64,000 nt of DNA from a virus (IMGVR_UViG_2571042445_000002), one strand, 5' to 3'; counted from the first letter of the stretch, positions 14,603 through 61,136 are shown. Notes: generated from the letters alone by a model not told the origin. A program made the numbers and translations.

Positions 14603-14680
14603 TTCTAATGTTATGTGTTAGAAAATTAAGATTAAAACACACCATGACGATTTTGTTAAAGAAAATTATTTTTCTAATGC
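14603..14680. promoter_or_regulatory. divergent control region with three copies of TTCTAAT/TGTTAGAAAATTAA operator-like motif and TTGACT -35-like hexamer
   Basis: GTTCTAAT 14603-14610, TGTGTTAGAAAATTAA 14616-14631, TTTTTCTAATGC 14669-14680, TTGACT 14684-14689. Confidence 0.45.
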
Positions 14681-44820: not shown

Positions 44821-44945
44821 GCTAAAAGCTAGCTTAATTTTCTAACACAGTGTGTTTTTATACACTGTTGATCCGACGGCACGTGATCGAGTAGGATCGC
44901 GGTCACTGCTCCGGTAGCGACTGCCAAAAAAAGCAAAAGCCGCTG

Positions 44946-45019: not shown

Positions 45020-45652
45020 GTGAGTATTTTAAATTCAGTTTCAGTTACTTTCAACACTTCTGAGTATAAAAACAACACTGAATACCACAAAAAAATCAAA
45101 GGTCATCAGTTGAGTTTTTTTGCTCGTCATAGCGGTTTTCTTTCCCCTTCACATAGCGCCATTATTGCCGAGTTCGCCAACCTGGCAGGAGCTACCGATG
45201 AATACATGATCCGTCGCTCATATGCGGATATGTCCGAGATTACAGGACGCAGTATTTCTACTGTGCGCCGGGCATTTGCCGAAGCGACGAAGTGCGGAAT
45301 GCTTGTTAAGCAGCATCAGGTAGCGAATAACAATGCTCAGGTGTGTAACGTGTACCGGTTTACAACACAATTTCTCCACTTCATTCATGTAGCAATGGAG
45401 ATAGGGAGTAAGCAGGGCATCAAATTTGCCAACGCCACAAAACTGGTTAAGCAGTTGATTTCAAAGGTTCGTTATTTTTTTGAAACTGGGAACCCCCTGT
45501 TCAAATTGAACAAGTCCCCCCATGTTCAAAATGAACAGCCAATAGAAAATAAGAGTCACTCTATAGCCAAAAGAAGAGAAAGATCATGCGCGGTTCAGCC
45601 AAAGGCTTCACCAGCAGATAGTTCTCAAGCGGATAATGGGGGGGCTGGATAA
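45020..45652 (+). CDS. hypothetical protein with winged-helix-like DNA-binding segment (start uncertain)
   Basis: Segment ITGRSISTVRRAFAEATKCGMLVK; 210-aa ORF. Confidence 0.35.
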   Translation: MSILNSVSVTFNTSEYKNNTEYHKKIKGHQLSFFARHSGFLSPSHSAIIAEFANLAGATDEYMIRRSYADMSEITGRSISTVRRAFAEATKCGMLVKQHQVANNNAQVCNVYRFTTQFLHFIHVAMEIGSKQGIKFANATKLVKQLISKVRYFFETGNPLFKLNKSPHVQNEQPIENKSHSIAKRRERSCAVQPKASPADSSQADNGGAG

Positions 45653-46036
45653 AAAACCAGTAATCAGGGAAGAACATACCAACCACTGCCTGGCGGCGGC
45701 AAAAGCGAGAGCTGCAAAGCGTCGTTCAGATGAGGGGCACGCAAAACGGCAGGCTCTGTATCGTACCGCTGAAAAGCTGGCAAAAAAATTTGCATGGATA
45801 CGTAGTGCCGCTACAGCAGTGAATAAGCCTAAACAATCCAGTGCCCTGGATTTCTCAATGGATTATTCTGGCTCCCAGGGGTGTGCAACCATTGGTGAAG
45901 CCTTTGACCTGATGAAACAGCGTGGCTATCGGTCTGAATTTGACCGGGAAGACTGGTCAATTCCGGAGGGCTTTCGGGGATGATGTTGCGATTGACTGTA
46001 CAATAACCGTGCGGCGGGAATTTCATCGCTCGAAAA

Positions 46037-46081
46037 TGTATGTTAGAAAATTAAATTGATGTTTCTAATCAAGAATGTATG
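46037..46081. promoter_or_regulatory. operator-like inverted motif TGTTAGAAAATTAAATTGATGTTTCTAAT
   Basis: Half-sites TGTTAGAAA and TTTCTAAT in inverted orientation; additional TTTCTAATG at 46131. Confidence 0.5.
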
Positions 46082-46399
46082 ATTTATATCGTCACTAAAA
46101 AACAGCATCTGATAAAAATTCTGTTGATCTTTCTAATGTTCAGGCTTATATTCATGCCGTCGTAGCAAATTCTGCGACCGGGTTTAGCAGCCTGAATGTT
46201 AGTGCGGACAACCGCAGATATCCGATATTGCGGTATTTTTGTGTCCGTAAAACCGCGTTACGCCCAAATTATGGTGGGGCGTGATGGGGAGGCTTCGGCC
46301 TGCTGGTTTCACTAACGCCAGTCTGCTAACCCCGTCACGTCCTGCCACCTGTTTAGCAGCGGGTAGCAGGTTGTTAAACCTGTTAGTGAGGCCGTAACT

Positions 46400-46624
46400 A
46401 TGGTTAATGCCAATCCTTGCTCACGTCCAGAATTCATCTGGCGTTTTCACTCCCTGCAAAAACACTGCGATCACTTCGCAATTGCCGCAACTGAAAAAGA
46501 AGCCCGTTCTCTGATCCCTGATCAGTATGGCGTTCTCACTGGTCGTTTCTCTACTTCCCCACAACCAAACACCAATCCCTGGTATCGCAATATTACCAAT
46601 CCCGGCATTGCGGAGGCTCACTGA
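46400..46624 (+). CDS. small protein translationally coupled to antirepressor (icd-like position)
   Basis: 74 aa; ATG 46400 with GTGAGG SD; stop overlaps ant start (ATGA). Confidence 0.4.
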   Translation: MVNANPCSRPEFIWRFHSLQKHCDHFAIAATEKEARSLIPDQYGVLTGRFSTSPQPNTNPWYRNITNPGIAEAH

Positions 46625-47331
46625 TGGATATCTGCATTCTCGAAAAGCCATCAATGACCAGCATTGAGATCGCGGAGCTGGTGGGAAAACGTCATGACAA
46701 TGTGAAACGCACTATTGAGACATTAGACAAAGGTGGCGTTATTGTTCGTCCTCAAATTGAGGTTTTCGAAAAAATCAATAACTTAGGACTACGACGTAGT
46801 GTTGAGGCTTACGTCTTCGAAGGCGAGCAAGGCAAGCGCGATAGCATTATCGTCGTCGCGCAGCTCTCTCCCGAATTCACCGCCCGGCTGGTGGACCGCT
46901 GGCGCGAACTGGAAGAACAAGTACGCCAGCCGTTGACCGAAATAGAGATGATCGCTGCAATGGCTGCAAATGCAGTTCAGCAGCAAAAGCGGCTTCATGT
47001 TGTTGAGTCAAAGGTTAGCCAGGTTGCTGAAACCGTCGAGCAGATCAAGAAGGGCAACATGCCAGAAGGTTACATTGGCTATCGTCAGTTAGCGGCGAAA
47101 TGTGGCCTGACTGAAGCCAAATGCCGTAACCTGGTCAACGCTAACCGGATTCCCACAGATACGCATGAGTTTTTGACGCCAGAGGGGGTATTGTCGCGTC
47201 GTACTATTGTGGCCTTATCTCCCTTCATGAATGCCTTTACCCTGATGATGTCGGAGGCTGAACACCGAGGAAAACGCTGGTATCACCCAAGGATGGGACA
47301 ATTCCAGGTGATCGGTTGGGGAGGCGAGTGA
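46624..47331 (+). CDS. phage antirepressor (Rha/Ant-like N-terminal domain)
   Basis: N-terminus ILEKPSMTSIEIAELVGKRHDNVKRTIETL matches Rha-family pattern; SD GGAGG 9 nt upstream. Confidence 0.6.
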   Translation: MDICILEKPSMTSIEIAELVGKRHDNVKRTIETLDKGGVIVRPQIEVFEKINNLGLRRSVEAYVFEGEQGKRDSIIVVAQLSPEFTARLVDRWRELEEQVRQPLTEIEMIAAMAANAVQQQKRLHVVESKVSQVAETVEQIKKGNMPEGYIGYRQLAAKCGLTEAKCRNLVNANRIPTDTHEFLTPEGVLSRRTIVALSPFMNAFTLMMSEAEHRGKRWYHPRMGQFQVIGWGGE

Positions 47332-47559
47332 TGGACATCATGCAGGCGGTAAAAAAAATCAGGGAAGGACAGGCTGAAGTGTGCCGCCGTAAAGCATGGA
47401 GTGTTGGTATATGGATCTGGCCTGATAATTGCTCTACTACCGGATGGTTTTGTATTAATGGATGCCAGATCCGGGAAGTCGATTTATCGACGGCGGATGC
47501 AGTCGGTAATGATTGGATCGTAACTTGAAGTGTGATGCCCCGGCCTGGCCGGGGCTTTT

Positions 47560-48051
47560 TCATGCCTCATTAGTTGAGGTTGCTGCGTCGCCGACAGGTA
47601 ACAGAACTGTATTGCGTGGTTCGCCAGCAGGCCAGCGATAGCCAGACACTCTTGATGTTGGGAATGCGCGAATATTAACAGCATCCCCCTGGTTCCCACC
47701 CAAGACAAGCAGATCGCCATTGGCGCGGCGTCCGACAACAAAGCCTACATGCCCACCGCCTGCGCGAGTAAATACAACGATACATCCGTATGCCGGTGTA
47801 TCTAATTTCTCGCCCCAATCCAGATAGGATTTTGCCGACTCAAATCTTGTTGAGCGGATGCCTACACGTTCCAGCATTGCACCGACAAATGCTGCGCACC
47901 ACGGCGTTTCATCGTCTTTAATTCCACCGCGCTTAATATCCCGCCAGAACTGGACGATCTCAGGATTGTGTTTCGCTCCTTTTATTTCGGTGACTCCAAT
48001 ATTTTTACGGGCTTCAATAAGCCAGCGAGGTTCATTATTGATCATAATCAT
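47560..48051 (-). CDS. peptidoglycan hydrolase candidate (papain-like Cys/His cell-wall peptidase)
   Basis: 163 aa; ETPWCAAFVGAMLER (Cys) and GGGHVGFVVG (His) arrangement typical of CHAP/NlpC-P60-like small phage hydrolases. Confidence 0.45.
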   Translation of the reverse strand: MIMINNEPRWLIEARKNIGVTEIKGAKHNPEIVQFWRDIKRGGIKDDETPWCAAFVGAMLERVGIRSTRFESAKSYLDWGEKLDTPAYGCIVVFTRAGGGHVGFVVGRRANGDLLVLGGNQGDAVNIRAFPTSRVSGYRWPAGEPRNTVLLPVGDAATSTNEA

Positions 48052-57646: not shown

Positions 57647-57670
57647 AATATGTTAGAAAACTAATTTCAA
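57647..57670. promoter_or_regulatory. operator-like motif AATATGTTAGAAAACTAATTTCAAG upstream of 57685 gene
   Basis: Core TGTTAGAAAA 57651-57660. Confidence 0.45.
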
Positions 57671-58893: not shown

Positions 58894-58930
58894 TGTATTA
58901 GAAAATTAAAATTGTTTTTCTAACATATTG
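58893..58930. promoter_or_regulatory. operator-like palindrome ATGTATTAGAAAATTAAAATTGTTTTTCTAACATATTG
   Basis: Half-sites ATTAGAAAA and TTTTCTAAC inverted around AATTAAAATTG; second copy AGTGTTAGAAAGTAAATTTT at 59044-59063. Confidence 0.5.
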
Positions 58931-60238: not shown

Positions 60239-60313
60239 GATGGTGTAGCTCAGTGGTAGAGCAGTTGGCTGTTAACCAACTGGTCGGTGGTTCGAATCCA
60301 CTCACCATCGCCA
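60239..60313 (+). tRNA. tRNA-Asn (anticodon GTT)
   Basis: Cloverleaf parsed manually: acceptor GATGGTG/CACCATC, D-arm GCTC-AGTGGTA-GAGC, anticodon loop CTGTTAA, T-loop TTCGAAT, 3' CCA encoded. Confidence 0.8.
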
Positions 60314-60315
60314 AT

Positions 60316-60391
60316 GCCGGTTTAGCTCAGTTGGTAGAGCGCCTGCCTTGTAAGCAGGATGTCAGCGGTTCGAGTCCGTTAACCGGCACCA
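60316..60391 (+). tRNA. tRNA-Thr (anticodon TGT)
   Basis: Acceptor GCCGGTT/AACCGGC, anticodon stem CCTGC/GCAGG with loop CTTGTAA, T-loop TTCGAGT, CCA encoded; 2 nt after tRNA-Asn. Confidence 0.8.
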
Positions 60392-61060: not shown

Positions 61061-61136
61061 GGCCCTTTAGCTCAGTGGTTAGAGCGGGCGACTCATAATC
61101 GCACGGTCACCGGTTCAAGTCCGGTAGGGGCCACCA
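61061..61136 (+). tRNA. tRNA with CAT anticodon, ileX-like (tRNA-Ile2/lysidine type or elongator Met)
   Basis: GGCCCTTTAGCTCAGTGGTTAGAGCGGGCGACTCATAATCGC...GGTTCAAGTCCGGTAGGGGCCACCA closely resembles E. coli ileX as recalled. Confidence 0.8.

Follow-up and report, generated by a model that had tools for sequence, protein, structure and literature searches.

The closest described relative of the locus studied here is the immI region of phages P1 and P7. It comprises the promoter P51b, the boxes a1 and b1, a 77-nt antisense RNA (c4), the boxes a2 and b2, the latter lying over the ribosome-binding site (RBS) of icd, and the genes icd and ant1/2, of which the icd stop codon overlaps the start of the next gene. 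In P1, RNase P reportedly releases c4, which prevents the translation of icd, the gene for a small inhibitor of cell division, and through it, with polarity, the expression of the coupled ant; the mechanism reportedly goes back in part to Citron & Schuster (1990), Biere et al. (1992), and Hartmann (1995). It has been described in PMC8198154 and PMC12197685. Two other systems, isrK-orf45-anrP of Gifsy-1 (IsrK, RF01394; STnc1160) and seqA-CI-seqC of the satellite phage P4, share with the present locus a two-hairpin leader with a terminator, a processed RNA of the c4/CI type, complementary boxes that flank this RNA on both sides, and an antirepressor-like gene to which a small ORF upstream of it is coupled. 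They differ from it in that the short RNA activates in Gifsy-1, whereas the P4 RNA works by transcription termination and P4 lacks the icd-ant pair. The P4 CI RNA acts with seqA at the terminator t1. In phage D6, orf19-orf18-orf17 (MF356679) show the same gene set and order as our locus at 92% DNA identity, as do D6-like plasmid prophages such as pYU39_89, and a D6-like plasmid was reported to carry homologues of c4, icd, and the antirepressor together with a second region of this kind (PMC6799933). The system as such is already known, being textbook P1 biology that was previously noted in D6-like plasmids.

We analyzed a window of 64,000 nucleotides (IMGVR_UViG_2571042445_000002), for which an earlier note, made from the sequence, had proposed a P1 immI-like unit consisting of a structured leader, a small coupled ORF, and a Rha-type antirepressor. 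The locus is very probably the immI module of a D6-like phage-plasmid, homologous to immI of P1 and P7 and most likely working in the same way.

Source element and layout of the module

The window was identified as a D6-like E. coli phage-plasmid. It was 99.8% identical to plasmid NZ_CP085065.1 (over 3.1 kb) and 92% identical to phage D6 at the DNA level, and its gene order was that of D6: portal, protease, repL, icd, the Roi-like antirepressor, a small ORF, a TIGR02594 hydrolase, and darB. A search of complete E. coli genomes returned twelve records with at least 99% identity to the window. Neither the GenBank entry of D6 nor the RefSeq entries of the plasmid family annotate anything but CDSs, and the c4 RNA and its target boxes are unannotated there. 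An Rfam scan of the whole window also detected three tRNA genes (60239-60310, 60316-60388, and 61061-61133), which match the tRNA cluster annotated in D6.

The region from 46000 to 47560 consists of an AT-rich control region, a leader of ~240-310 nt, ORFs of 74, 235, and 65 aa, and a strong terminator-like hairpin; all features of this module described below lie on the plus strand. The repL gene is located upstream of the module in the window and downstream of it in P1. In the window repL (45020-45983) was broken into two ORFs of 210 and 115 aa, whereas NZ_CP085065.1 and D6 have a single 320-aa gene. The split is caused by one extra G in a run of seven Gs (45636-45642). Either the homopolymer was misread in sequencing, or this gene for lytic replication is truly frameshifted.

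The window was aligned with D6, P1, and P7, and the P1 annotation was then transferred column by column. Homology to P1, P7, and RCS47 was limited to 46124-46511 with a DNA identity of ~90-91%, and c4 and icd are annotated in this segment of those records. Since the P1 homology begins at the -35 element of the P1 promoter P1c4 (P51b) and stops in the middle of icd, the c4-icd segment is, judging from the alignment, a mosaic cassette. P1 and P7 have the same elements as this cassette, in the same order and with the same box logic: the promoter P51b, a1, b1, the 77-nt c4, a2, b2 (which lies over the RBS of icd), and icd as far as its middle. The DNA identity of ~90% to P1 and P7 in the leader and the first half of the small ORF bears out the proposal of an immI-like unit.

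The c4 RNA and its target boxes

The Rfam covariance model of the C4 antisense RNA (RF01695) matched 46267-46352 over its full length (model positions 1-87) with 70 bits, compared with a gathering score of 45. The ends transferred from the P1 misc_RNA annotation define a 77-nt c4 RNA at 46273-46349, which falls inside the bracket of 46150-46390 in which a small RNA had been expected. The predicted fold has an MFE of -44.9 kcal/mol (z-score -5.6), and the MFE structure is the same as the centroid. It has a closing stem of 17 bp and two hairpins, one of them a UUCG hairpin and the other carrying b' (UCACUAAC, 46309-46316) in its loop, with the a' strand CUGCUAA (46323-46329) being single-stranded. 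The earlier note had placed the latter correctly as a partial complement, CTGCTAA. In 43 relatives, 99.9% of the cells in the c4 stems were paired; the scaffold is almost invariant, so that its internal stems show next to no covariation.

Upstream of c4, the c4-a1b1 motif (RF03163) was detected at 46146-46198 with 53.9 bits against a gathering score of 46.7; it forms two hairpins with a1 in the second loop. The a1 box (TTAGCAG, P7 type) was located at 46184-46190 by transfer of the P1 annotation, and its pairing with a' is kept in all 43 distinct relatives. Both the annotation transfer and the pairing in relatives assigned b1 (GTTAGTGC, P1 type) to 46198-46205, and the target boxes a2 (TTAGCAG) and b2 (GTTAGTGA) to 46353-46359 and 46382-46389, respectively. 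All three box sets are mutually complementary in the window. The sequence GTTTAGCAGC occurs exactly twice in the 64 kb, at 46182-46191 and 46351-46360, compared with 0.09 copies expected, and two matches were obtained in none of 100 shuffles. The repeat reported earlier is thus present in two copies, but these start 2 and 9 nt away from the positions given for them (46180 and 46342). The earlier note had missed the second box set, made up of GTTAGTG (46198 and 46382) and the complementary CACTAAC (46310-46316). These are three of the 11 copies in the window, lying inside 190 nt.

The pairing of the boxes was evaluated among relatives. A search of IMG/VR with a pattern containing N positions gave no matches; a shorter 24-nt c4 core pattern was used instead and retrieved 120 loci, and the six boxes were parsed in 124 loci. 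Among 43 distinct sequences, standard pairs filled every cell, both between c4 and a2/b2 (645 of 645) and between c4 and a1/b1 (602 of 602); two-sided changes were seen in 8 of the 15 pairs of the former and in 8 of the 14 pairs of the latter. When the partners were slid by 1-3 columns as a control, just 26-48% of the cells paired. The loci come mostly from related isolate genomes and their counts are not independent events, the informative figure being the number of distinct compensated box types. The two Rfam matches and the perfect covariation of the boxes support the view that the leader encodes a c4-type antisense RNA, as had been suggested.

The b2 box overlaps the Shine-Dalgarno sequence of icd (GAGG, 46388-46391), which is located 8 nt before the ATG at 46400. 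By analogy with P1, transcription would start from two tandem promoters (46056-46083 and 46124-46152), and the transcript would carry, in order, the a1/b1 decoy boxes, a weak terminator, c4, the a2/b2 targets, icd, the Rha/Roi-type ant gene, and the 65-aa ORF. The c4 RNA would be processed from the transcript of its own operon, the cutting being done by RNase P in P1, and mature c4 is expected to pair with a2 by its a' strand and with b2 by its b' loop. Since b2 covers the Shine-Dalgarno sequence, this pairing would block the translation of icd and, through translational coupling to icd (in P1 together with Rho polarity), the expression of ant, so that the antirepressor would be off in lysogens. 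The specificity of immunity would then reside in two short boxes, which here are of the P7 type (a) and the P1 type (b).

Between b1 and c4 a terminator-like hairpin (CCGCAG...UGCGG followed by a U-run, 46212-46240) was found. It resembles the 3' element of isrK, its function is predicted, and both the hairpin and the U-run are kept in P1, P7, D6, and the 43 relatives. A competing hairpin can form between GCGG (46204-46207) and CCGC (46212-46215), and its 5' arm is overlapped by b1. In constrained folding the terminator formed only when a1 and b1 were blocked, the fold then going from the competing hairpin to the terminator. These features would fit a control of the P4 type, in which c4 acts chiefly on transcription: pairing of c4 with nascent a1/b1 would prevent the GCGG/CCGC hairpin and let the terminator form, so that c4 would be autoregulated and read-through into icd-ant stopped, as with the P4 CI RNA and seqA at t1. 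The relationship of C4, c4-a1b1, and the P4 system (Rfam clan CL00128) and the seqA/CI analogy (PMC4825925) point in the same direction. Nevertheless, we consider it unlikely that attenuation is the main control. The switch is a result of folding with a weak stem (5-6 pairs with a long loop), and in the second c4 module of this plasmid type blocking makes no difference, the terminator forming either way. Moreover, attenuation would add to the masking of the RBS by b2 rather than replace it, because b2 overlaps the Shine-Dalgarno sequence and covaries perfectly.

The same stretch also matched the isrK model (RF01394) at 46159-46240 with 46 bits (E = 6.5e-08), which is below the gathering score of 50, whereas the second module of the plasmid type exceeds that score with 62.7 bits. 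This raises the alternative that a short RNA made of a1b1 and the terminator and ending at 46240 accumulates and acts in trans, either as an activator or as an anti-antisense sponge for c4, to turn on the translation of icd-ant. IsrK does so for orf45-anrP in Gifsy-1; its mechanism has been documented there, and translational coupling to a protein resembling an antirepressor is part of it (PMC4825925). In the P1 literature, as in the annotation of the P1 record, a1 and b1 are putative c4 targets and nothing more, and a stable short RNA is a prediction made here from the sequence. With the match lying under the threshold of the family, we regard an IsrK-type activation as quite improbable, and the masking of the icd RBS by c4 remains our preferred reading.

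Overlapping genes, promoters, and the candidate operator

The 74-aa ORF (46400-46624) was assigned as an icd homologue. It matched NCBIfam phage_ICD_like (NF033153) with 40 bits against a cut-off of 25 as well as PHROG 1426, and it was 61% identical to P1 Icd over 61 aa, in agreement with the Icd-like size and position that had been recognized earlier. Its stop codon (TGA, 46622-46624) overlaps the start codon of the 235-aa ORF (ATG, 46624-46626) by one base in TGATG (46622-46626). The overlap claimed in the earlier note therefore exists, but its sequence is not ATGA, which is the 4-base overlap of P1. The second overlap is built in the same way: the stop of the 235-aa ORF and the start of the 65-aa ORF share one base in TGATG (47329-47333). 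The ant gene is preceded by its own GGAGG (46612-46616), and a site of the GGAGG type also precedes the start of the 65-aa ORF.

The 235-aa protein (46624-47331) was classified as a putative antirepressor of the Rha/Roi type from Pfam and PHROG. The domain Phage_pRha (PF09669) was detected in its N-terminal part (residues 11-98) with 36.6 bits against a gathering score of 29.9, and the protein matched PHROG 63, 'anti-repressor Ant', with E = 3.6e-48, so that the description as a Rha-type antirepressor holds at the level of families. The cut-off of NCBIfam TIGR02681 was not reached (17.3 bits vs 45.95). The orthologue in D6 is annotated as 'similar to HK97 Roi', and at the DNA level the ant gene shared 74-78% identity with the roi genes of lambdoid phages. 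A tblastn comparison of P1 Ant1 and KilA with the window gave no match at E <= 1e-3. Because of this and the resemblance of the DNA to roi, we infer the antirepressor role only from the position of the gene and its family labels, with P1 as the model. Members of the Rha/Roi family are not all antirepressors.

These data bear on a further explanation, namely that the locus is a decayed or non-functional remnant, or that the Rha/Roi protein is a DNA-binding factor for lytic growth and c4 controls something besides the lysis-lysogeny switch. The 74-78% identity to lambdoid roi genes, which are not established antirepressors, and the frameshift in the adjoining repL would be in line with it. However, every RNA element and all three ORFs are intact, the three box sets are complementary to one another, identical copies exist in many complete E. 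coli plasmids, and PHROG 63 and related families carry the antirepressor label. We judge this explanation to be very unlikely, and an intact immI module is the reading followed below.

The third coupled gene, the 65-aa ORF (47331-47528), is the orthologue of D6 orf17 and belongs to PHROG 7385. Over its whole length it gave a weak Pfam match to Tad2-like proteins (Thoeris anti-defence 2, DUF2829) at 16.9 bits, which is below the threshold of 25 (E = 0.0095). BLASTP between this ORF and the DUF2829 protein of the plasmid was not significant, and the single-sequence AlphaFold model was poor (pLDDT 56.8). Searches of solved structures with Ant, Icd, and the 65-aa ORF gave no usable match. The operon ends at an intrinsic-terminator-like hairpin with 8 G-C pairs followed by TTTTT (47537-47555).

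Two promoter-like sites precede the leader. The downstream one, with the -35 sequence TTGATC (46124-46129) and the -10 sequence TATATT (46147-46152), was found by a consensus scan and by alignment with P1, in which it is homologous to P1c4 (the former P51b). The upstream one, which came from the consensus scan, consists of TTGATG, a 16-nt spacer, and TATGAT (46056-46083); this stretch is not homologous to P1 in the alignment, and by its position it is an analogue of P1 P2c4/P51a. The Op51/P51a region and the sim genes of P1 are absent from the window, and this different promoter with a 17-bp motif is found instead.

One copy of the 17-bp motif ATGTTAGAAAATTAAAT (46040-46056) abuts the -35 element of the upstream promoter. 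Six copies with up to 3 mismatches were present in the window, compared with 0.29 expected, and nine in the rest of the near-identical plasmid, compared with 0.24 expected. One copy in the plasmid is located 13 nt upstream of the gene for a C1 homologue, and others adjoin ref. The motif is a candidate operator for the C1 repressor of the D6 type, and its arrangement with the upstream promoter is reminiscent of P1, where Op51 lies over P51a. The prophage repressor, whose gene lies ~3 kb past the right end of the window, would then probably control the upstream promoter (46056-46083) through the abutting copy. Further copies were located at 14615-14631, 44832-44848 (minus strand), 57650-57666, and 58895-58911 / 58910-58926; one copy is just upstream of repL, and the last two form an overlapping inverted pair that looks like a bivalent operator.

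The operator-like motifs that had been proposed for 46037-46140 were thus retained in part. The 17-bp motif at 46040-46056 stood, while the repeat TTGAT[G/C]TTTCTAAT at 46056 and 46124 proved to represent the -35 regions of the two tandem promoter-like sites. As a dispersed operator this repeat was rejected, with 3 matches compared with 1.09 expected and an equal number in 8 of 100 shuffles. Even when 3 mismatches were allowed, the consensus of the P1 C1 operator, ATTGCTCTAATAAATTT, had no match anywhere in the window, and the P1 C1 protein, like Ant1 and KilA, had no tblastn match there. Since the RNA elements of P1 were all recovered but neither Ant1/2 nor the P1 operator was, the unit joins a c4-icd front end of the P1 type to another putative antirepressor and probably stands under another repressor. 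In place of ant1/2 it has the unrelated Rha/Roi-type protein and the coupled 65-aa ORF.

Box alleles and immunity specificity

The 124 parsed loci contained two types of the a box, TTAGCAG (the P7 type) and TTGACAG (the P1 type), and at least seven types of the b box: GTTAGTG (P1), GATTGTG (P7), ACTTACG (D6), ACGAATG, GTACATG, ACTTGTG, and GTTCAAG. At least 13 different a x b combinations were found in nature, with a1, a', and a2 switching together and b1, b', and b2 likewise. Among the P1-type c4 loci the switching is independent of which antirepressor is located downstream. The window carries a chimeric allele with the a box of P7 (TTAGCAG) and the b box of P1 (GTTAGTG). This combination is found in 11 of the 124 loci and occurs upstream of either the P1-type Ant1 or the Rha-type protein. 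Phage D6 has the P1-type a box (TTGACAG) together with a b box of its own (ACTTACG), so that it differs from the window in both boxes in spite of the shared gene set. Much of this system being known, just the combinatorial diversity of the boxes and the chimeric allele of the window are possibly unreported.

Duplex energies were predicted for the window c4 against its own targets and those of P1, P7, and D6. On its cognate target the values were -9.3 kcal/mol for a and -11.8 kcal/mol for b. On the P1 target the b duplex was equally stable (-11.8 kcal/mol) and the a duplex was weaker (-6.7 kcal/mol), whereas on the P7 target a was fully paired (-9.3 kcal/mol) and b reached -4.9 kcal/mol. On the D6 target the energies were -6.7 and -1.7 kcal/mol for a and b, respectively. 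Between the window and D6 types, the predicted c4:b2 duplexes amounted to -0.9 to -1.7 kcal/mol, compared with about -11 to -12 kcal/mol for cognate pairs.

These results allow the a and b boxes to be read as a combinatorial immunity code. The P7-a/P1-b allele of the window would represent a third immI specificity, partly cross-reactive with P1 through full b pairing and with P7 through full a pairing; the b box alone would set orthogonality, and a1b1 with the terminator would act as a c4-dependent attenuator. We put this forward tentatively, as a possibility with somewhat less than an even chance of being right in all these parts. Seven IMG/VR contigs carry two or three P1-type modules (e.g. 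L015/L078/L107 and L018/L053/L102), and in these the b box is never shared while a is often shared. This hints, if weakly, that b discriminates between modules and sets specificity. Given the observed type frequencies, unshared b boxes in co-resident modules are only borderline unlikely by chance.

A single mismatched locus was found among the relatives (L044, IMGVR_UViG_2565956613_000015), in which b1 and b' are of the ACGAATG type and b2 is of the GTTAGTG type. Judging from these boxes, its c4 could not mask the RBS of its own icd, and the locus seems to have arisen by natural recombination, the breakpoint falling between c4 and b2.

The second region reported for a D6-like plasmid was confirmed, outside the window, in both D6 and NZ_CP085065.1, where C4 scored 76-77 bits and isrK 59-63 bits. 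The two sites (L127, 10689-11169, and L126, 24963-25443, both on the minus strand) hold a more divergent set of isrK-like, c4, icd, and antirepressor elements. The boxes of this module are orthogonal to those of the window (a, TTGGAAC; b, GTCAAAGG). Since the boxes of the two modules differ, one element carries, as far as base pairing predicts, two orthogonal antisense switches.

The antisense-RNA immunity switch proved to be recognizable from raw sequence, and exact coordinates are now available for the c4 RNA gene and the four target boxes, which are unannotated in the public records of the plasmid family. P1-like and D6-like phage-plasmids often carry resistance genes. Since the leader is present in 537 of 5426 complete E. 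coli genomes (~10%), the box alleles should make it possible to predict which of these phage-plasmids, P1-like or D6-like, can superinfect or induce each other.
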